Of a stretch of DNA of 39,434 nucleotides, positions 3,316-34,238 are shown piece after piece (position 1 is the stretch's first letter; each line of letters opens with the position of its first letter). This DNA is from a virus (Duplodnaviria > Heunggongvirae > Uroviricota > Caudoviricetes): IMG/VR virus record IMGVR_UViG_2541047689_000010. One strand, 5' to 3'. The position numbers and the translations under genes were made by a program. Below the pieces are notes generated by a model, which was not told the DNA's origin, did no database searches, and worked only from the letters and a program-made list of their open reading frames with translations.

Positions 3316-6072
3316 TTAGCTACTTTCAAGCATTGCAAGACGTGATTCTATTTTTTCGATTCTTCTACGCAAATAAGCTGACTCAAGCCATAAACACTGG
3401 TCAGTACGGATACCCCACCTATTTCCAGCCTTGCAAACCAGAGTTCGCTCTTCTGTTTCGTATTCTTCTTCCATCTCAATTTCGACGCCATCCACAACTT
3501 TAGTGATCATCCTTACCGCCATCACTGGCGCGTATTTATCATCCCATTCATCGTAACAGAGAAGGCCAAATCTGGTTCCATCAATCCCATGCGCGAGGAA
3601 AGTGTCTCTCACTTGTTGTGCTATAACACCAAAATGCCAGCGGGCACCATCTCCCTTTTCCCTGACGGCATCAAGCCAGCGAAAAGCTACAATCCTGATA
3701 TCTCCCCATGCATCCAGAATTGCATCACCTTCATAACCACGAGACATATACAAGCTGAGCTCACTTGTACTAATCGGTTCACTTTTTTCTCTACCATCTG
3801 ATGTGTTTATCGAACCGTTCGCAGAATAAACCTGTGCCCATCTAAATGATGGTGCACCAAGAGATTTGCTGTTATCAATAATTGGTGAAAAATTACCTTT
3901 AATGGCAATATTTCCAGAGTCGCCGAATATATTAATAACTGCAGAGTCATCACCATGGTTTTTTACGCTTAAGTTTCTTGATGAAATATTTATATCTTTG
4001 TTATATCCACTAACATTAATCCATCTTTTACCATCAATGTGATACCCGTAAATATTTCCGTCTGATTGTTCGTCAGGTGACTCTCTAAGAACAATAGCAT
4101 CTGCTCCAGACGACCATTGTATTTTTGTATCTGTAGGCCTCCAGTTCTTTATAATGAACGAACCATCAGTAAACTCCGTTTTTATTTGTCTATTGTCTAC
4201 AAATGCGTCTCTTGGTTTAAACTCACTTGTGTTAACGCTGCTCTGAAGATCAGAAGCAAAAAATCTAAGATTTCCTGTATAACCCTGAGTCTCGGTCTGG
4301 TTATACGCAATCATAATTCCATTTTCAAACTCAGATGATGTTATTTTAACATCACGGCAATCACCAAAAATGCAATTTCCTTTATCAAATGTTGTTTGAG
4401 CTTTGAATTTATCAAACCTTAAATTACGAACAGGGAAACCATCAACCTCTAATGCAAAGGATGCAGGAAGGCCAAAGTATTCTGATGGCTTACCTGATGT
4501 ATGATCAAGAGTAGTGGCTACTGTATTCTCAAAAACAGTCCCGCTAAAATTATTACCAATTGACGGAAACCTGATTACACTTATTGTACCTTGTATTTCA
4601 GGAGAAATACCAGATAGTGTGATGTTAGCTCCATCAAATGATGCATCTGAATACGTATATACTGATTCACTGCCAGCAATTTTAAACTGTTTAACTGAAG
4701 TTATTCTCATCGACTTTTTATGTTTAAATGTCACTGAGCTTTCAGTATTACTTACAAGATCAATCTGAGGGCTATTCCTTATCGCGATCCCTGACTGGAC
4801 ATAAACGTTATTAAAGTGCGTTTTTTCAGGATTTCCCTTCATTGAAAGGCTCCCGTCATTTTCTGTCAGTAGTAGTCCTTTTACCCTCCAATAGCCGACA
4901 ATCTGTACGTTATCAATAACTGAATCACAGCTATCGTATACATGCAACCCTATATCCCAGTCATCACCCAATGAATAAGAATCAGGGTTATTGTATCCTT
5001 CAATACCATTTTTACTTACCATTATTCTCAGGTTGCGTAACTGTGATGCCCTGTTGATACTAACAGCTACGCTCATGGCTTTTGGTGTAGCAGGAGTAAC
5101 ACCTACAGAATCTTCATTTGTAAACTCAGTGAACTTACAAGATATCCCTTCAACAATTTTAACTGGTCTTTCATTAGAGATGTTAAAAAAATATTTGTTT
5201 TTTTCTCCATCACCAGTAAATACAAGATGGGTTCCTTTACTCCAACTTTTTAATAATCTTTCAGGCGCTGGTCTATATGTATCCCAATAATCAATGCCAT
5301 CACCAATTAAAGACACTCCAGGAGGCACATCTATGTTCTTAGAAATCATCCATTTACCTGCAGGTATTCTAACGACACTTGCACCAGAATTTATCGCATT
5401 AATTAACCATTCAGACGCATCAACTTCAAAATTTAATGCAGCATATCTTTGCTCAAACGGAACAAAATCAAGAGCGTTAACGTTATCCCGCATCTTATCC
5501 TGGAACGTTCGGTATACTGCTCCAGAACCATACTGAATAAACCAACCAAAACCACCAACAACTCCGGCGATTGCAGCATCAACATAATTGCGCATTGATC
5601 GATTATTTACAGCATCCTGCTCAAGTGATGGATCTGCAAGGTTAGAAATTTTGTTTTGCTTTGCATCGTAATATTTTGCAAGCAAAGATGGTTTCATCAA
5701 TGCACGTCTGAACCATCCAAAACATTGCTGGATCAGCATCGTCAGATAGTCAAAGGCATCTTCATGCACCTCGGGGAAAAATTTTCCCTGATTACGAAGA
5801 TCAGTCTCCTGCACCACATCAAGCACACGATCTATCGTAATTCGCCATCCAGCAGCAAGCGGCGACGGAAGAACAACAGAACCGCCACTATAAGTGCCCG
5901 CCCCTGTTACCGTATAACCGGTATCCAGAACCAATTCTGTTACGTTCCCGTTCAGGTCAGACACCTGAACAACCAGGTCGGATTTTTTGAAAATACGGAA
6001 GGTATACGGAAATGATGTCGTAGCTCCGTTACCTGTGTATTCGTTGTGGTCAACTTCGGTTGAGACCGTCAT
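3316..6072 (-). CDS. Tailspike / tail fibre protein with C-terminal intramolecular-chaperone (peptidase S74-like) domain
   Basis: 918 aa; long central Ser/Asn/Gly-rich region consistent with a beta-helical receptor-binding domain; C-terminal ...DGREKSEPISTSELSLYMS...WHFGVIAQQV... resembles self-cleaving chaperone domains of tailspikes/endosialidases. Confidence 0.8.
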   Translation of the reverse strand: MTVSTEVDHNEYTGNGATTSFPYTFRIFKKSDLVVQVSDLNGNVTELVLDTGYTVTGAGTYSGGSVVLPSPLAAGWRITIDRVLDVVQETDLRNQGKFFPEVHEDAFDYLTMLIQQCFGWFRRALMKPSLLAKYYDAKQNKISNLADPSLEQDAVNNRSMRNYVDAAIAGVVGGFGWFIQYGSGAVYRTFQDKMRDNVNALDFVPFEQRYAALNFEVDASEWLINAINSGASVVRIPAGKWMISKNIDVPPGVSLIGDGIDYWDTYRPAPERLLKSWSKGTHLVFTGDGEKNKYFFNISNERPVKIVEGISCKFTEFTNEDSVGVTPATPKAMSVAVSINRASQLRNLRIMVSKNGIEGYNNPDSYSLGDDWDIGLHVYDSCDSVIDNVQIVGYWRVKGLLLTENDGSLSMKGNPEKTHFNNVYVQSGIAIRNSPQIDLVSNTESSVTFKHKKSMRITSVKQFKIAGSESVYTYSDASFDGANITLSGISPEIQGTISVIRFPSIGNNFSGTVFENTVATTLDHTSGKPSEYFGLPASFALEVDGFPVRNLRFDKFKAQTTFDKGNCIFGDCRDVKITSSEFENGIMIAYNQTETQGYTGNLRFFASDLQSSVNTSEFKPRDAFVDNRQIKTEFTDGSFIIKNWRPTDTKIQWSSGADAIVLRESPDEQSDGNIYGYHIDGKRWINVSGYNKDINISSRNLSVKNHGDDSAVINIFGDSGNIAIKGNFSPIIDNSKSLGAPSFRWAQVYSANGSINTSDGREKSEPISTSELSLYMSRGYEGDAILDAWGDIRIVAFRWLDAVREKGDGARWHFGVIAQQVRDTFLAHGIDGTRFGLLCYDEWDDKYAPVMAVRMITKVVDGVEIEMEEEYETEERTLVCKAGNRWGIRTDQCLWLESAYLRRRIEKIESRLAMLESS

Positions 6073-6175
6073 GTTAAATCTCCAGATAGTCGCAGCACCC
6101 GTTGCGCCGCATATCTGGTTATTCTATTACCTGAAAAACCACATATGGATAGAAAGACTGTAAATACGAATAGAT

Positions 6176-6192
6176 ATTACCTTTCAGGTAAT
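6176..6192. promoter_or_regulatory. Operator-like dyad ATTACC-N5-GGTAAT (family copy)
   Basis: Perfect inverted repeat read directly; lies just upstream of a candidate promoter for gene 6268-6525. Confidence 0.5.
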
Positions 6193-6228
6193 TTGCAAAA
6201 CGTGCTGGATAGCAAACAAATTATTTGC

Positions 6229-6248
6229 TACTGTATAAATATACAGTT
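6229..6248. promoter_or_regulatory. LexA (SOS) box
   Basis: TACTGTATAAATATACAGTT matches the E. coli LexA consensus CTGT-N8-ACAG with AT-rich spacer; ends 20 nt upstream of the ATG at 6268. Confidence 0.65.
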
Positions 6249-6267
6249 ATTGCATGGAGAAGATAAG

Positions 6268-6525
6268 ATGCAGCAGTATCACTATCCACTGGAAGACGGA
6301 TTTACCGAAAGGATTCACACGCCGGGAGGCGTCAGGTCACTGGTGGAGGGATCGCACTTGATGAAATTACTCCGGGATCTCGATAAGGATGGATTTAATG
6401 TCGATGGCCCACTTGCCGAACTGACTGCACTGATTAACTACGTCACCAGCTCACAGATGTCTATGCAGGATCTGCAAACACATCTCGACTATTGTGCCGA
6501 ACAATTACGAAAGCAAACCAGATAA
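6268..6525 (+). CDS. Small SOS-controlled protein homologous to the C-terminal domain of the adjacent Bro-N antirepressor (putative antirepressor)
   Basis: ATG with GGAG upstream, in frame with track ORF 6145-6525; about 85 aa; alignable with residues about 160-230 of the 6839-7531 product. Confidence 0.55.
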   Translation: MQQYHYPLEDGFTERIHTPGGVRSLVEGSHLMKLLRDLDKDGFNVDGPLAELTALINYVTSSQMSMQDLQTHLDYCAEQLRKQTR

Positions 6526-6555
6526 GGTTTGCAATTACCAAGTGGAGTGCTTATA

Positions 6556-6572
6556 TTTACCTTTGCGGTAAA
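6556..6572. promoter_or_regulatory. Operator-like dyad TTTACC-N5-GGTAAA embedded in a longer imperfect inverted repeat
   Basis: Read directly; flanked by GGAGTGC ... GCACTCC. Confidence 0.45.
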
Positions 6573-6838
6573 TTTACATCGCACTCCTCTTGTGCCATAG
6601 TAATCGGGCACTGGCAAAATCCAGTGCCGGGATTGGTCTCCCGGATTACTACAGAGGCACATATGCCGCATAAGCGGTTTTTTTATGTGTAAAGCGCACC
6701 TATTCTATGGTGGGCTGTGTGGGGGCACCGAAAGGTGCGCCGGGTTCCTTTGTAGCCGGTAAGACCAACTCTGCACAGTTCACCACCATCTGATTGGTCT
6801 CAGCGGTGGTGATTAACCTAACTACAAAGGTGATCGCC

Positions 6839-7531
6839 ATGAATACCAAACCTTCCATCTTTTCCTTTGAGTCATCCTGCCAGATCCGTATGTTCATGAT
6901 TGACGGAGAACCTTGGTTTGTCACCAAAGATGTGTGCAATGCTTTGAATATTGATGTTACACAAGCGAGAAAACTTGATAAAAAAGGCTGGAACAAAAAG
7001 GGGCTGTATTCAATACAGACCCCTGGTGGAATACAAGAACTATCCATCGTTTCAGAATCAGGTCTCTACATCCTTATTCTGCGTTGCAAAGAGGCAATGA
7101 CAGAGGGAACGAGAGCATTCAGATTTCTTGAATGGGTTACAGGTGAGGTTCTTCCTCAGATCCGCCGCACCGGAAGTTACATTAAAAACTCGCTCCCGCA
7201 GGAAGAACGCATAAAGATGGTTGCCGACCAGGTAGCCAACGCCACGGCGTCAGCAGTAATGCAGGCGATGAAGATAGAGAACAAAACCTACAGTGCCCCG
7301 CTGAAGCCCGGCTACCGCAGCCTGATTCACTCGCCGTCTGGTGTTCTCGGCCTGACGGAGAACTCACTGCTGATGAATCTGCTGAACCAGTTACAGGAAG
7401 ACGGGCACGACGTATCGGGCGCGGCGGCGGAGCTGACCACCATGTTCTGCTACATCGTCGGTGTGAGTAAATGCCTGCGTGATATCCAGACGCACGCGGA
7501 GTACATCAACGACAAGGCTGGGTTCTTCTGA
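6839..7531 (+). CDS. Antirepressor with N-terminal Bro-N domain
   Basis: Start at ATG (MNTKPSIF...) with SD AAGGTGA; N-terminus FESSCQIRMFMIDGEPWFVTKDVCNALNI is typical of Bro-N/phage antirepressor domains; followed by hairpin GGCACATGGATGTGCC plus T-rich tail. Confidence 0.75.
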   Translation: MNTKPSIFSFESSCQIRMFMIDGEPWFVTKDVCNALNIDVTQARKLDKKGWNKKGLYSIQTPGGIQELSIVSESGLYILILRCKEAMTEGTRAFRFLEWVTGEVLPQIRRTGSYIKNSLPQEERIKMVADQVANATASAVMQAMKIENKTYSAPLKPGYRSLIHSPSGVLGLTENSLLMNLLNQLQEDGHDVSGAAAELTTMFCYIVGVSKCLRDIQTHAEYINDKAGFF

Positions 7532-7596
7532 CGGGCGGCGGCACATGGATGTGCCTTTAAAATAATCATTGGCGATGTGATGTAGATTCGCGTAAT

Positions 7597-7613
7597 ATTA
7601 CCTTAAAGGTAAA
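7597..7613. promoter_or_regulatory. Operator-like dyad ATTACC-N5-GGTAAA overlapping a candidate -10 element
   Basis: Read directly; 25 nt upstream of the 7639 ATG. Confidence 0.5.
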
Positions 7614-7638
7614 CCATGTGTTTACATGAGGAGGAGAT

Positions 7639-7848
7639 ATGGGATTTTGGTTCGCTCGTACAAAAACGAGGGATAATGCACCCAGCCCTCAGGCAAAAAA
7701 TGCAGAAGTTCCGGCGTCAGCGCAGGTTAACAAGCGTGGTGGAGTATATATCTCATCACAGCAAATTTCTGAGCTTCCTGAGGTTAAGGAGATGCGTCGT
7801 CTCGCTGCTGCAATTGTTAAACAGGATCTTGCCACTGTAAGGAAGTAG
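7639..7848 (+). CDS. Small hydrophilic protein (69 aa), unknown function, translationally coupled to the downstream membrane protein
   Basis: SD GAGGAGGAG before ATG; stop TAG overlaps the GTG start of the next gene (TAGTG). Confidence 0.5.
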   Translation: MGFWFARTKTRDNAPSPQAKNAEVPASAQVNKRGGVYISSQQISELPEVKEMRRLAAAIVKQDLATVRK

Positions 7849-8714
7849 TGTTGCTAGCTCTTCTAATTATCCCAATCCTGGTTAGCGGTTATATTATGAT
7901 AACCGCTAACCAGTATCATTATTTCCGTTTATACCGACACGAAGGCCAGCTTCTTTATATGAAAGTAGCGGCACTAGGTACATATTGCCTTGTTGCATCA
8001 GTAATAATTGCAGCCGCTATAAAATATAAATGGCCTGATTTTCACCTAGTTCACGATATGGTGGAAACTTTTAATGTAACATCAAAACCAGAAACAGATA
8101 GAATTTACATGTGGCTGCTTCTTCTCTCAGCCACATCCATTTGCTTCTCTTTGTGTTATGTGTCTGTTGTGTGGGTGAAAGATTTTCTTCTTGGTTGTTT
8201 TTATAAACGTGATATTTACGAGCAAAAAACAGAGGCAATGAAGGCCAGAGTACTGCGAAAAACTTACTCGCAAGGTTCTTTAGACTTACTATTGCTTGAT
8301 GCTATTGAATCGGATCCTAAACGACCAATGCTGATTACTTTATCATCAAACAAAGTGTATGTTGGAATAATAAATGGTTCTGGTGAACCAACGGAAAATC
8401 AGGGTCCGCATCAGCACATATCTTTTGTTCCTTTAATGTCAGGATACAGGAACAAAGAAAACTTATCTGTCACATTCACTAATGCTTATCCAGGAGAAAT
8501 ACAGGTCAAGCGGACTGCAGCAATAAGAGGAATTAGCAGAAAGAAAGTGCCAGGACTTGAGATCATGGTGTCTATTGACGAAATAAGTTATATATCATGG
8601 TTTGATTTTGAAGTATATAAAGCAACAAATAACAAAGTAGAATCCAGGGGGCACGTTATTCGTGTTACCAAAAATGGAAGAAATATATATCAAAGAAATA
8701 GCAAAAAAGAATAG
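7848..8714 (+). CDS. Membrane protein with three N-terminal TM helices and a roughly 170-aa C-terminal soluble domain; unknown function (candidate exclusion/abortive-infection effector)
   Basis: GTG start with AAGGAAG SD; hydrophobic segments LLALLIIPILVSGYIMI, VAALGTYCLVASVIIAAAI, YMWLLLLSATSICFSLCYVSVVW; gene is visibly AT-rich compared with flanking phage genes; intrinsic terminator directly after the stop. Confidence 0.55.
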   Translation: MLLALLIIPILVSGYIMITANQYHYFRLYRHEGQLLYMKVAALGTYCLVASVIIAAAIKYKWPDFHLVHDMVETFNVTSKPETDRIYMWLLLLSATSICFSLCYVSVVWVKDFLLGCFYKRDIYEQKTEAMKARVLRKTYSQGSLDLLLLDAIESDPKRPMLITLSSNKVYVGIINGSGEPTENQGPHQHISFVPLMSGYRNKENLSVTFTNAYPGEIQVKRTAAIRGISRKKVPGLEIMVSIDEISYISWFDFEVYKATNNKVESRGHVIRVTKNGRNIYQRNSKKE

Positions 8715-9274: not shown

Positions 9275-9715
9275 ATGATTAAGCCGATGCACGCTATTAC
9301 AGCTACCGTTTTGTTTATCCTACCAATTTTTTCGTTTGCAAACGACATATGTTTTAAGAATTTAATAAATGAGGATATGTGTGCACATGCAAACAAAATT
9401 GCATCAGAAGCAGGAAAGTCACTTCCCATAAAATTGAATGATAATATGTCTATTGTTTCAATAAATGCAATACTAAACAAACTTTTAGTTGTAGCGCATC
9501 TTAATTACAACAACAGCTATTTATCAAAAGTTTATAACGGTGATGTAACCTTAGAAAATAAATTAAAGAGTGTAATGCGAAATTATTCAAAATCGAGCAT
9601 TTGCTCCAACAGGCAAATGAAAGCATTTATTCACCTTGGCGGAGAGATTGAATATAGGTATGTATTTAGTGATGGCAATATATTTGATACATACGCCATC
9701 ACTAATTGTGAATAG
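9275..9715 (+). CDS. Secreted/periplasmic small protein with cleavable signal peptide and four Cys; unknown function
   Basis: N-terminus MIKPMHAITATVLFILPIFSFA then NDICF...; AT-rich; stop abuts the stop of the convergent tail gene. Confidence 0.5.
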   Translation: MIKPMHAITATVLFILPIFSFANDICFKNLINEDMCAHANKIASEAGKSLPIKLNDNMSIVSINAILNKLLVVAHLNYNNSYLSKVYNGDVTLENKLKSVMRNYSKSSICSNRQMKAFIHLGGEIEYRYVFSDGNIFDTYAITNCE

Positions 9716-25068: not shown

Positions 25069-25157
25069 ATCAATGACTCCGTACGCAATTAAATTATTAC
25101 CAATTTAACCACATATGATTTATTTATCGTAGGCAGTTGACATTTAACGCGCGAATT

Positions 25158-25495: not shown

Positions 25496-25572
25496 GTGGC
25501 ATTAGCTCAGTTGGACAGAGCAACCGCCTTCTAAGCGGTTGGTCGCAGGTTCGAATCCTGCATGCCACACCA
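25496..25572 (+). tRNA. tRNA-Arg (anticodon UCU, reads AGA)
   Basis: Manual cloverleaf: acceptor GTGGCAT/ATGCCAC, D-arm GCTC...GAGC, anticodon stem ACCGC/GCGGT with loop CTTCTAA, T-arm GCAGG-TTCGAAT-CCTGC, discriminator A and encoded CCA. Confidence 0.8.
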
Positions 25573-30731: not shown

Positions 30732-31076
30732 TCAGAACTCTTCGATGTTCCAGCCACCACCTGCTTTCTTTGGTTTAACCGTTACCCCGATGATTCGGAA
30801 CGGATACTGATCTGCGGCGACTTTGGTTTTCACCCTGGCGTCGTCGGTCCAGAAACCTTTCACTTCGTGCAGTTCCATCTCGCCGGTGGCGAGCATCACA
30901 GCAAAATCTGGCGTATAGAACGTGTTGTCAGCTAACCGCAGCTTGATACCCTCAAATCGATACCAGACGATTTCTCCTGCACGTTTACGCAACTCAAGGT
31001 GCTGGCAATACGCAGATTCTGTTTTGTTCATCTGGCCTGTTTTGAGTCGACCAAGAGCCTGTATCTGTTTTCTCAT
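30732..31076 (-). CDS. Putative PD-(D/E)XK-type nuclease (114 aa)
   Basis: Motif ...YTPDFAV...MELHEVKG... fits PD-x(n)-(D/E)-x-K; first gene after an operator-flanked promoter. Confidence 0.5.
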   Translation of the reverse strand: MRKQIQALGRLKTGQMNKTESAYCQHLELRKRAGEIVWYRFEGIKLRLADNTFYTPDFAVMLATGEMELHEVKGFWTDDARVKTKVAADQYPFRIIGVTVKPKKAGGGWNIEEF

Positions 31077-31078
31077 AA

Positions 31079-31157
31079 TTTACCCCTGAGGTAATTAAAA
31101 ACCACATAAGACACGAAATCAATAGAGTTTAGAATACTTTGTTACCCAGAAGGTAAC
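31079..31157 (-). promoter_or_regulatory. Candidate regulated promoter: -35 TTGATT and -10 TTTAAT (minus strand) bracketed by two operator-like dyads (31079-31095 and 31141-31157)
   Basis: Dyads TTTACC-N5-GGTAAT and GTTACC-N5-GGTAAC read directly; hexamers 17 nt apart; proximal dyad overlaps the SD of gene 30732-31076. A weak hairpin plus A7/T7 run at 31169-31188 precedes it. Confidence 0.5.
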
Positions 31158-33133: not shown

Positions 33134-33364
33134 TCATGAGTAGAAGAAGTATGCCAGTTCTGCTTTTGAGCGCAGCCATTGTCTTGTTTTACAGGCTTTA
33201 AAAAGCCCATTCATCAATACCTTACCTGGCATTTTGCGCTTACCTGTTAAGTGAGTCTGGATATAGTGACTCGTCGTTCCGGCTTCCTGTGCGAAGGCTT
33301 CACGCTCATCCGGAGTAAGTGCAAGCCAGTGCTTTTTGAAATCGAAATGTCCGTTATCGCTCAT
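33134..33364 (-). CDS. Cro-like HTH regulator (first gene of the replication-side early operon)
   Basis: 76 aa, divergent from the repressor gene across a 154-bp operator region; HTH-like segment EAFAQEAGTTSHYIQTHLTG. Confidence 0.55.
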   Translation of the reverse strand: MSDNGHFDFKKHWLALTPDEREAFAQEAGTTSHYIQTHLTGKRKMPGKVLMNGLFKACKTRQWLRSKAELAYFFYS

Positions 33365-33399: not shown

Positions 33400-33464
33400 T
33401 TCACCCATAAGGTAACAAAAATCAAGGATAGTTACCTATGAGGTGCATTTACCTGTTGGGTAAT
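33400..33464. promoter_or_regulatory. Immunity-region operators: three adjacent dyad sites (33400-33416, 33431-33447, 33448-33464) between the divergent cro-like and repressor genes
   Basis: TTCACC-cataa-GGTAAC, GTTACC-tatga-GGTGCA, TTTACC-tgttg-GGTAAT read directly. Confidence 0.55.
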
Positions 33465-33518: not shown

Positions 33519-34103
33519 ATGAAAAGTATCCAGGACGTCCGCAGGCAAAATCTCAACGACTTGATCGACCGTGAATTCAATGGTGTTCAGACGCGGATGG
33601 CAGAAAAACTTGGAACTCAGGCAAATCTGGTAAACCGCTGGGCTCTTGGCAAGAAGGTTATCGGCGACCAGGTTGCGCGAAAAATTGAAGCTGCCGCCAA
33701 TAAACCCCGTAACTGGCTTGATATCGATCGCTCGCTTTCTCAGGAAGGTTTTCAGCCTGTCGGCCCAAGCGACATTGGTCAGCTGGCGGCTCACAACCTG
33801 GAACGCTGGATGAGCGAAAGCCGCGACCTTTCAACGCAGGGAAAACTTCACCGCGCATCCGGCGTCGCCCAGGTGACAATCAGTCGCCTGTTAAACAATG
33901 AGGTCAGCGTTTCCATTTCCACCCTGGAGAATGTTGCATCCGCATTCGGGCGTCACGGATATGAACTACTGATTCACCCGCACGACCCTGCGACTATCAA
34001 CTATGACCGCTCGCGCTACGCATTGTTACCCGAAACCGAGAAAGCAAAGATCGAAAGTTACATTGAATTTGTCATCAACCAGAACGAAAAAAGCAAACAA
34101 TAA
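33519..34103 (+). CDS. Prophage repressor (CI-like) with two helix-turn-helix domains and no LexA-type (S24) autocleavage domain
   Basis: 194 aa; two HTH-like segments (...QTRMAEKLGTQANLVNRWALGKK... and ...LHRASGVAQVTISRLLNNEV...); no Ala-Gly/Ser-Lys peptidase motifs seen; divergent from cro-like gene; followed by a strong terminator. Confidence 0.65.
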   Translation: MKSIQDVRRQNLNDLIDREFNGVQTRMAEKLGTQANLVNRWALGKKVIGDQVARKIEAAANKPRNWLDIDRSLSQEGFQPVGPSDIGQLAAHNLERWMSESRDLSTQGKLHRASGVAQVTISRLLNNEVSVSISTLENVASAFGRHGYELLIHPHDPATINYDRSRYALLPETEKAKIESYIEFVINQNEKSKQ

Positions 34104-34159: not shown

Positions 34160-34238
34160 ATTACCTTACGGGTAATTTTTTTAACTCATATCTATTGACA
34201 CCAAACCAAATAAGCATAATTATTACCTCAACGGTAAC
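34160..34238 (+). promoter_or_regulatory. Candidate regulated promoter of the recombination-side operon: dyads at 34160-34176 and 34222-34238 flanking a TTGACA hexamer (34195-34200); extra GGTAAC half-site at 34246-34251
   Basis: ATTACC-ttacg-GGTAAT and ATTACC-tcaac-GGTAAC read directly; -10 assignment ambiguous. Confidence 0.5.

Follow-up and report, generated by a model that had tools for sequence, protein, structure and literature searches.

A predicted LexA–antirepressor induction module of the SPC32H type in a phiV10/ε15-like prophage of Escherichia coli

The window analysed here, a stretch of 39,434 nucleotides corresponding to the IMG/VR virus record IMGVR_UViG_2541047689_000010, is a phiV10/ε15-like (Uetakevirus) prophage of E. 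coli. The region under study is 91-99% identical to phiV10-like phages and E. coli prophages, and the prophage lineage was found in 545 of the 5426 complete E. coli genomes (~10%). It includes two divergent genes, namely a tailspike or tail-fibre gene on the minus strand (3316-6072, a 918-aa ORF), whose homologues in relatives are annotated as tail fibre, tailspike, glycosyl hydrolase or endosialidase-type protein, and an 85-aa antirepressor gene, ant, on the plus strand (6268-6525). Between them lie a 17-bp dyad, ATTACC-TTTCA-GGTAAT (6176-6192), and a LexA (SOS) box, TACTGTATAAATATACAGTT (6229-6248). The prophage repressor gene, rep, is located at 33519-34103 on the plus strand. The gene order is that of SPC32H and ε15, with the tailspike gene divergent from ant and rep far away.

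The ant gene starts with an ATG at 6268, preceded by a Shine-Dalgarno (SD) sequence GGAG at 6256-6259, and its stop codon ends at 6525. A longer ORF of 126 aa, starting from an ATG at 6145, was rejected because homologues begin at the equivalent of 6268 and because the operator and the LexA box would be read through. In a phmmer search against the PDB, residues 2-84 of the 85-aa protein matched residues 3-85 of 5D50_E, "Anti-repressor protein" (E=4.1e-47), and by tblastn the ORF is ~88% identical to the ant gene of SPC32H, which encodes a protein of ~86 aa. The protein also matches phrog_450 (E=9e-48), a family marked "unknown function". The Pfam scan of Ant returned no significant family, the sub-threshold hit being DUF724 (17.6 bits, against a cut-off of 38.4), and the ant orthologue is covered by no Pfam or NCBIfam model; most phage records, like the RefSeq E. 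coli genomes, still list it as a "hypothetical protein".

The LexA box was assigned on the basis of its match to the consensus and its positional conservation. It agrees with the 20-nt consensus TACTGTATATATATACAGTA at 18 of 20 positions and is the sole match with three mismatches or fewer in the 39.4 kb, while 100 shuffles produced none. The shorter pattern CTGT-N8-ACAG occurs four times in the window, against 0.4 expected, and only the copy at 6229-6248 combines an intergenic promoter position with an all-A/T spacer. The near-consensus box reported upstream of the 85-aa ORF by the initial annotation is thus present, and its distance from the ATG needs only the trivial correction from 20 to 19 nt. 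Across 10 phages of four host genera (alignment A1), box and dyad alike keep their positions, the box staying fixed relative to the ATG while the flanks diverge; in phiV10 the dyad is degenerate (GGTGAT). Moreover, a scan of IMG/VR with Ant, covering near-identical loci with 1.5-kb flanks, found both elements in 77 of the 78 contigs carrying a near-identical gene.

The hexamers of the ant promoter were inferred from conservation and placed at 6206-6234 on the plus strand, with a -35-like TGGATA (6206-6211), a 17-nt spacer and an extended -10, TGcTACTGT (6226-6234), which would overlap the left half of the LexA box. Alignment A1 shows no variation in CTGGA.A or in the TG at -15/-14; the spacer is constant in length and variable in sequence in the seven sequences from E. 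coli, Salmonella and Enterobacter, and the three from Klebsiella carry small indels within this stretch. The hexamers are weak matches (7/12), and a consensus promoter scan missed them. Two other candidates were discarded: TTGCAA (6193-6198), abutting the dyad, as a -35, since relatives have no conserved -10 at 16-18 nt downstream, and TATAAA (6234-6239), inside the box, as a -10, since relatives show TATGTT, GTATTT or TACATA there and it is TGnTACTGT that is conserved. The box overlaps this conserved TGnTACTGT, an overlap of LexA site and ant promoter like that of SPC32H. Over the 1449-bp region compared between SPC32H and its variant SPC32N there are only two differences, and one of them is a single base, C to A, in the ACAG half of the orthologous LexA box. 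This change is reportedly sufficient for constitutive synthesis of Ant.

The product of rep, 194 aa in length, has two HTH-type domains: Pfam places HTH_3 at residues 106-147, with a weaker HTH-like match near the N-terminus at 21-61. It matches 5D50_A, "Repressor", over residues 1-190 (E=3.5e-42), as a full-length homologue of the SPC32H Rep, and 5D4Z, the C-terminal domain (E=3.6e-20). The SPC32H protein combines DNA binding in its N-terminal domain with an HTH-like C-terminal domain for oligomerisation and Ant binding. When Rep was aligned with the Rep proteins of SPC32H and ε15, its identity to that of SPC32H was ~47%, against 88% for Ant, so that cognate binding between Ant and Rep is an expectation in this prophage. 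No Peptidase_S24 match was found by Pfam in Rep, nor an S24 peptidase elsewhere in the whole window, and tblastn of the whole window with E. coli LexA and lambda CI gave a best E of 0.45. The repressor is therefore not recognisable in these searches as one of the autocleaving lambda CI/LexA type, and its earlier description as a protein with two HTH domains and no LexA-like peptidase domain holds.

Divergent from rep lies a cro-like 76-aa gene (33134-33364, minus strand), which matches phrog_35, "transcriptional repressor" (E=5.6e-13). A motif scan placed two operators in the rep-cro intergenic region, at 33401-33415 (one mismatch) and 33449-33463 (exact). Just downstream of rep, a P_L-type promoter, TTGACA-17-AATTAT, stands between two further operators (34161-34175 and 34223-34237) that are 62 bp apart, and the same spacing of an operator pair recurs at 31080/31142 as well as in SPC32H and ε15.

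These operators belong to the same family as the dyad upstream of ant. With one mismatch allowed, the window contains 14 copies of the core TTACC-N5-GGTAA where 0.68 would be expected, a count that no shuffle attained, and they include those of the immunity region, both between rep and cro and just downstream of rep. In the GenBank record of ε15, ATTACC-N5-GGTAAT sites are annotated as protein_bind features, "repressor", and the equivalent site upstream of gp19 is among them. From its sequence, the dyad ATTACC-N5-GGTAAT is classed as an operator-type site for the Rep of this phage, and the operator-like dyad that had been noted upstream of the candidate ant promoter is thus confirmed at 6176-6192 as a member of a motif enriched throughout the window.

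Its position is a different matter. Four promoters have a clearly acting operator, whose first base in each case coincides with the final base of the -10 hexamer, whereas no conserved promoter on either strand puts the dyad upstream of ant (core at 6177) at -10/+1. The best plus-strand candidate that would do so, TAGAAA-17-GATATT (8/12), is not conserved in SPC32H, and nothing above 7/12 was found on the minus strand. The centre of the dyad lies ~57 bp upstream of the predicted start of ant transcription, which would fall near 6241, within the LexA box. On the tailspike side, a block of invariant columns in alignment A1 (6126-6147, minus strand), consisting of a half-site ATTACC (6126-6131) and CATATGTGGTTT (6136-6147), belongs to the putative tailspike promoter, for which a leftward start near 6114 is predicted. 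The portal (25106) and 31099 promoters likewise carry CATATGTGGTTT together with a GGTAAT half-site, preceded by a full dyad 29-41 nt upstream, and the dyad at 6176-6192 is arranged like those of the portal and 31080 promoters, namely a full dyad, ~30-40 nt, CATATGTGGTT and a GGTAAT half-site. Other leftward promoters have their auxiliary operators upstream in this same layout, and the dyad is therefore, by geometry and analogy, probably a Rep operator that serves the divergent tailspike promoter from upstream in an auxiliary role.

Taken together, these features very probably form an SOS-induction module in which a LexA-repressed Ant inactivates a non-cleavable Rep, orthologous to the Ant and Rep of SPC32H, with the dyad serving the tailspike promoter as an auxiliary operator. 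In a lysogen, tetrameric Rep would occupy TTACC-N5-GGTAA operators at most phage transcription units (rep-cro, P_L, the 31080 promoter, terminase, portal, tailspike and the promoters downstream of ant), while host LexA would sit on the box at 6229-6248. As the box shares bases with both the extended -10 (TGcTACTGT) and the predicted start site, ant would be silent. Upon DNA damage, activated RecA would stimulate the self-cleavage of LexA, ant would be transcribed, and Ant would bind Rep, which, having no S24 domain, would stay uncleaved; binding would dismantle the DNA-binding Rep tetramer and the phage would be derepressed. For SPC32H, genetic experiments and crystal structures are reported to have demonstrated control by LexA, binding of Ant to Rep and no cleavage of Rep. 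A review citing Kim & Ryu 2013 states that LexA cleavage permits the synthesis of Ant, which inhibits the repressor via protein-protein interaction, and the citing literature describes Rep as binding DNA as a tetramer that tetrameric Ant splits into dimers. The initial proposal, induction through a LexA-controlled antirepressor and not through autocleavage of the repressor, is accordingly supported by the orthology of both proteins to this experimentally characterised system. As both are orthologous to the Ant and Rep of SPC32H, the LexA-Ant-Rep mechanism is already described; the proposal is hence correct and not new.

An alternative assigns the dyad to ant itself: bound at 6176-6192, Rep would co-repress the ant promoter together with LexA, or set its threshold, and the release of Rep by Ant would provide positive feedback. 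A bona fide operator-type dyad does precede the predicted -35 of ant by 14 nt, and the upstream dyads of P_L and of the 31080 promoter, 19 nt from the -35, probably cooperate in repression; however, at ant the spacing departs from the P_L-type arrangement by 5 bp, which puts it out of phase, and -10/+1 of the ant promoter has no primary operator, the LexA box occupying its place. A second dyad at 6557 could permit a loop of the Rep tetramer around ant, but SPC32H and ε15 do not have such a downstream partner. There is a precedent for an antirepressor under the control of a phage repressor in FsoA of Fels-1 (PMC3121763). Strong repression of ant by Rep, though, would prevent induction, as Rep still has its full activity at the moment of LexA cleavage. 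Furthermore, the dyad is intact in SPC32N, where the LexA-box base is the sole difference from SPC32H in the ant-promoter region. True dual control, with a phage protein acting on ant alongside LexA, had been read into the locus by the initial annotation; it was not upheld and is considered unlikely, and the preferred assignment of the dyad remains the tailspike promoter.

It is far less probable still that the box is a palindrome resembling a LexA site by chance or through decay, with the small gene expressed independently of SOS. The three other CTGT-N8-ACAG copies in the window are in keeping with such an origin, but a full-consensus match at 18 of 20 positions, with none expected by chance, a position fixed relative to the ATG across four genera with diverged flanks, the recovery of the box in 77 of 78 IMG/VR loci, and a point mutation in the orthologous box as one of only two changes between SPC32H and SPC32N all argue for a functional site. 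The classical route, in which RecA would stimulate Rep to cleave itself, or another protease would inactivate it, and the 85-aa protein would have a different SOS-related role, is the least credible of all. Nothing in the sequence favours it, and it is considered only on account of the ~47% identity of Rep to the characterised SPC32H repressor. Against it, an S24 domain is missing from Rep, no C-terminal domain resembling that of LexA or CI is found anywhere in the window, and Rep can be aligned over its whole length with the SPC32H Rep of the co-crystal with Ant.

Directly downstream of ant lies a second antirepressor module, similar to immI of P1, which had passed without remark in the initial annotation. 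It begins 4 nt past the ant stop codon with a plus-strand promoter, TTGCAA-17-TATATT, and a Rep operator (6529-6571, the operator at 6557-6571) whose first base is the final one of the -10; the position of this dyad is conserved in phiV10, Tyrion and E. coli AR_0085. An RNA element at 6595-6686 (plus strand), ending in an intrinsic terminator (6665-6686), was recognised by Rfam as isrK-like (74.7 bits, gathering score 50) and as a c4-a1b1 target (39.9 bits, E=4e-8). It is followed by a C4-type antisense RNA (6703-6790, plus strand; RF01695, 78.6 bits, gathering score 45), in which the loop CCUUUGUAG is complementary to CUACAAAGG at 6822-6830, covering the SD sequence of the next gene, and AGACCAA pairs with TTGGTCT at 6633 and 6794. 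That gene (6839-7531, plus strand) encodes a BRO-N protein (Pfam Bro-N, E=1.8e-13) whose C-terminal ~80 aa are homologous to Ant, with 42% identity over 74 aa (E=6e-16). It matches phrog_130, "anti-repressor Ant", and over residues 148-229 also phrog_450. A third Rep operator of the region (7598-7612) is located at a promoter, TTGGCG-18-TAATAT, for two ORFs of 69 and 288 aa; these match phrog_5739 and phrog_3630, whose function is unannotated, and gave no Pfam or PADLOC match.

No terminator was found between ant and this module, so that transcripts derepressed from LexA would enter the a1b1/isrK element. This raises the possibility, put forward tentatively and rated as a minority view, that phiV10-like E. 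coli prophages have a two-tiered SOS switch in which the second, BRO-N antirepressor is turned on by both routes. The a1b1/isrK element on the read-through transcript of ant would act as target and decoy for the c4 RNA, and Ant would clear the Rep operator at the next promoter, allowing the BRO-N protein with its Ant-like C-terminus to be made. If so, induction would be amplified and irreversible, or its reach would extend to the heteroimmune Rep of co-resident prophages. In a weaker variant, the dyad next to the ant promoter may give a Rep-dependent tuning of ant.

Among known systems, the module downstream of ant resembles immI of P1 and P7, immA of N15 and isrK-anrP of Gifsy-1, which share a repressor-operated promoter, an a1b1/isrK element with a C4 RNA, and a loop directed against the ribosome-binding site. 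In P1/P7 immI and N15 immA, a c4/CA antisense RNA controls an antirepressor expressed from a repressor-operated promoter, and in P1 a small icd-like ORF is translationally coupled to ant. The region 6529-7531 has the C4 RNA, the a1b1/a2b2 complementarity including the ribosome-binding site, and the repressor-operated promoter of the immI type. Unlike P1, it has no icd-like small ORF between the end of the C4 RNA (6790) and the start of the BRO-N gene (6839), its antirepressor is a BRO-N protein with a C-terminus like the Ant of SPC32H, and it stands behind a LexA-controlled ant.

The C-terminal part of Tum, the antirepressor of coliphage 186, is DinI-like. The Pfam scan found neither DinI nor any other significant family in the 85-aa protein, membership of the Tum group being judged by Pfam only, and the SPC32H authors reportedly called Ant structurally distinct from Tum and from the Gifsy antirepressors. 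The likeness to these proteins is a functional analogy and not homology: of the comparison drawn initially with 186 Tum and the Gifsy phages, the functional logic stands, while homology is dropped in view of the lack of a significant Pfam match for Ant. What is shared with Tum and with GfoA/GfhA of Gifsy-1/-3 is a small LexA-repressed antirepressor encoded outside the immunity region and acting on an uncleaved repressor (Lemire 2011, PMC3121763). The repressor is of another type in those phages, and so is the phage itself, the window being a podovirus.

The closest counterpart is SPC32H, a Salmonella podovirus whose GenBank record names the genes ant and rep and whose two proteins were co-crystallised (PDB 5D50). 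Besides the ~88% identity of Ant and the full-length orthology of Rep, whose two HTH domains are arranged alike, the two phages share the placement of the LexA box ahead of ant and the operator half-sites TTACC-N5-GGTAA, and in both Uetakevirus genomes ant diverges from the tailspike gene at a distance from the immunity region. The window differs in its E. coli host, in the ~47% identity of Rep, and in the c4/isrK-controlled BRO-N module that follows ant, which SPC32H and ε15 do not have. The same locus is found within the genus in ε15 (gp19/gp38) and phiV10 (p24/p23), and phiV10 has the same arrangement of ant and BRO "anti-immunity" genes as the window. In the ε15 and phiV10 records the ant orthologue is named "hypothetical protein", and the practical value of the present assignment lies in annotation, the orthologue having no functional label despite a crystal structure of the Ant-Rep complex. 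Worth noting are the tandem of ant with a second, c4/isrK-controlled antirepressor bearing an Ant-like domain and, in addition, the lone Rep operator in the ant-tailspike intergenic region. With regard to biology, this is confirmation and not discovery, extending the SPC32H-type switch to a prophage lineage carried by ~10% of complete E. coli genomes.

The PDB contains a single match to the 85-aa protein encoded at 6268-6525 (+): 5D50 chain E ('Anti-repressor protein'), with an alignment running end to end at E=4e-47. For the 194-aa product of 33519-34103 (+), the hits are 5D50 chain A ('Repressor', residues 1-190, E=3.5e-42) and the isolated C-terminal domain in 5D4Z. By homology, these proteins correspond to Ant and Rep of Salmonella phage SPC32H, whose GenBank record carries the gene names ant and rep. 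A domain search of Rep recovered HTH_3 (residues 106-147), a second, weaker hit of HTH-like type (21-61) and no Peptidase_S24 domain; tblastn of the whole window with E. coli LexA and lambda CI queries found no LexA/lambda CI-type domain (best E 0.45). The repressor described in the initial annotation, with two HTH-type matches and lacking a LexA-like peptidase domain, was thus borne out, and the locus is not a lambda-type autocleaving system. Across 5900-7700, the window shares 91-99% identity with Escherichia phages of the phiV10 type and with prophages found in 545 of 5426 complete E. coli genomes, and every close relative among phages falls within the genus Uetakevirus (ε15, phiV10, SPN1S/SPC32H). 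Identity to the SPC32H orthologues is ~88% for Ant and only ~47% for Rep, with unchanged operator half-sites; the Rep patches conserved at the N-terminus and extreme C-terminus may be the DNA-binding and Ant-binding surfaces, and several Rep immunity types may be served by one Ant type.

The intergenic space at 6073-6267 separates the leftward tailspike gene (3316-6072, 918 aa) from the rightward ant, and contains the near-consensus LexA box that had been proposed there. This 20-mer (6229-6248, TACTGTATAAATATACAGTT) departs from the LexA consensus at two positions (18/20 identical) and is the sole site with three or fewer mismatches in the 39.4-kb window (none in 100 shuffles); CTGT-N8-ACAG occurs four times against 0.4 expected. 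It lies upstream of ant as claimed, at a measured distance of 19 nt from the ATG rather than 20, with a Shine-Dalgarno sequence (GGAG) at 6256-6259. One of 78 IMG/VR relatives, contig IMGVR_UViG_2563366870_000004, has a rearrangement breakpoint inside the box, ~110 nt upstream of the ant ATG: the right half (...ATACAGTT) is kept, the sequence upstream is unrelated, and both LexA box and dyad are lost.

The intergenic region was aligned across ten phages whose hosts are E. coli, Salmonella, Enterobacter and Klebsiella. From the dyad to the ATG, conservation is concentrated in CTGGA(T/A)A, a TG dinucleotide, the LexA box and the Shine-Dalgarno sequence, a pattern which fits a candidate promoter made up of a TGGATA -35 (6206-6211), a spacer of 17 nt and, as extended -10, TGcTACTGT (6226-6234). 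The spacer varies in sequence at constant length in seven E. coli/Salmonella/Enterobacter sequences, and three Klebsiella sequences have small indels in it. These hexamers score only 7/12 and are unreported by a consensus promoter scan. The putative -10 hexamer would be the left arm of the LexA box, placing the transcription start inside the box, in agreement with the overlap of LexA site and ant promoter reportedly published for SPC32H.

The abstract by Kim and Ryu is said to report that two nucleotides separate SPC32H from its variant SPC32N, one of them in the LexA box overlapping the ant promoter, and that this change renders Ant constitutive and the phage lytic. Exactly two positions differ in the 1449-bp region compared, one being a C->A change (...ATACAGT to ...ATAAAGT) in the box orthologous to 6229-6248. 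According to a passage in a review citing Kim & Ryu 2013, LexA cleavage permits the synthesis of Ant, which inhibits the repressor through protein-protein interaction; the structural work, in a later paper's summary, has tetrameric Rep bound to DNA and tetrameric Ant binding two Rep dimers and breaking the Rep tetramer. Because Ant and Rep are orthologous, the window would encode this same switch, established for SPC32H and assigned to this phage by orthology. LexA would keep ant off, DNA damage would remove LexA, and Ant would strip the non-cleavable Rep off its operators. The suggested induction through a LexA-controlled antirepressor instead of repressor autocleavage is supported by this orthology, and no autocleavage domain is found in the window.

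The dyad ATTACC-TTTCA-GGTAAT (6176-6192), between tailspike and ant, belongs to a repeated motif: TTACC-N5-GGTAA with at most one mismatch occurs 14 times in the window against 0.68 expected. Three copies are in the ant region (6177, 6557, 7598), two separate rep from the cro-like gene (33401, 33449), and two stand immediately after rep, on either side of the promoter TTGACA-17-AATTAT (34161, 34223); further copies are at 31080/31142, 33064, 28286/28304 and 25159. Identical half-sites occupy equivalent places in SPC32H and ε15, and the ε15 GenBank record labels such sites protein_bind 'repressor, lysogeny', including one upstream of gp19, the ant orthologue. By this sequence evidence the dyad is a Rep operator; motif enrichment, shared half-sites and the ε15 annotation therefore make the phage operator dyad of the initial annotation correct and already on record. 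Measured start to start, a spacing of exactly 62 bp separates paired operators in the window (34161/34223, 31080/31142) and in the SPC32H and ε15 records (33604/33666 and 35972/36034 in L011; 32555/32617 and 35907/35969 in L010). The downstream operator of a pair starts on the final base of the -10 hexamer, and 19 nt separate the upstream operator from the -35, a pairing which fits a tetramer with two DNA-binding units. In phiV10 (2410-2424) and 14 IMG/VR relatives the ant/tailspike dyad is degenerate (GGTGA for GGTAA) and the LexA box intact. A tRNA-Arg gene (anticodon TCT, 25496-25572, +) lies within a block of structural genes on the minus strand, close to the operator of the portal operon (25159), and SPC32H has a tRNA-Arg at the equivalent place.

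The dual control of ant by host LexA and a phage protein, proposed from this dyad, is not supported, and true co-repression by Rep through it is improbable. In four promoters with good sigma-70 matches (8-10/12; 6529-6557, 7569-7598, 34195-34223 and the leftward one at 31080), the first base of the operator is the last of the -10 hexamer; two of the four also have an auxiliary dyad, placed 62 bp further upstream and separated from the -35 by 19 nt. At 6177 this primary geometry is found on neither strand: the dyad centre would lie near -57 from the putative ant start, with the LexA box holding the primary-operator slot. Furthermore, strong repression of ant by Rep would prevent induction, since Rep is fully active when LexA is cleaved, and the dyad is intact in SPC32N. 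Read leftward, the 6177 region resembles the portal and 31080 promoters: in each, a full dyad is followed after 29-41 nt by the motif C(A/T)TATGTGGTT, beyond which comes a GGTAAT half-site or another full dyad. Since ant is inserted in the orientation opposite to the late genes, the tailspike gene requires a Rep-silenced promoter of its own, and in ε15 and SPC32H no operator other than the equivalent dyad is available to it. The motif, C(A/T)TATGT(G/C)GTT(T/A), lies on the minus strand at 6136-6147, 9340-9351, 25106-25117 and 31099-31110, ahead of the tailspike gene, a 152-aa ORF, the portal operon and a unit starting near 31076; the half-site or dyad follows within a few bases at the three sites examined (tailspike, portal, 31099). 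With up to two mismatches it has 10 matches against 3.9 expected, and it may act as a spacer or as an activator element in the middle or late promoters of the phage.

A second control region, missed in the initial annotation, starts four nucleotides after the ant stop codon. A promoter (TTGCAA-17-TATATT, 6529-6557) overlapped by a Rep operator (6557-6571) is followed by an a1b1/isrK-type RNA element ending in an intrinsic terminator (6595-6684; Rfam isrK 74.7 bits, c4-a1b1 39.9 bits), a C4 antisense RNA (6703-6790, 78.6 bits) and a gene for a 230-aa BRO-N protein (6839-7531). The stretch CUACAAAGG at 6822-6830, which covers the BRO-N ribosome-binding site, is complementary to the c4 loop CCUUUGUAG, and AGACCAA of the C4 RNA pairs with TTGGTCT on both sides (6633 upstream, 6794 downstream), as in the a/b target logic known from P1 immI. 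Over its C-terminal ~80 residues the BRO-N protein shares 42% identity with Ant (E=6e-16), and both proteins match phrog_450; the locus therefore holds two antirepressors that share a presumed Rep-binding domain, one apparently wired to LexA and the other to Rep and antisense RNA. A terminator scan found none between ant and the a1b1/isrK element, so SOS-induced ant transcripts probably extend into it, which may couple the two antirepressors. The module is present in phiV10, Tyrion and other E. coli prophages and absent from SPC32H and ε15. Beyond it, the third operator of the ant region (7598) overlaps the promoter TTGGCG-18-TAATAT of a 69-aa and a 288-aa ORF (7598-8714), the latter with a hydrophobic N-terminus; they match phrog_5739 and phrog_3630 (unknown function), have no Pfam or PADLOC match, and may be Rep-silenced cargo genes.

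RefSeq E. coli genomes and most phage records call the ant orthologue 'hypothetical protein'; it has no Pfam or NCBIfam model and falls in phrog_450, labelled 'unknown function'. This annotation gap is a useful one to fill, the structure of the protein in complex with Rep being solved. Module 6529-7531 resembles P1 immI in its Rep-operated promoter, a1b1/isrK RNA, C4 antisense RNA and antirepressor gene. The proposed likeness to coliphage 186 Tum and the Gifsy antirepressors holds for the shared logic, namely LexA control, a place outside the immunity region and a non-cleaved repressor as target, but not for family membership, of which a Pfam scan of Ant found no sequence evidence. In every trait testable by sequence, the locus belongs to the SPC32H Ant/Rep family, and the initial annotation read the raw sequence correctly, rediscovering a mechanism already published.
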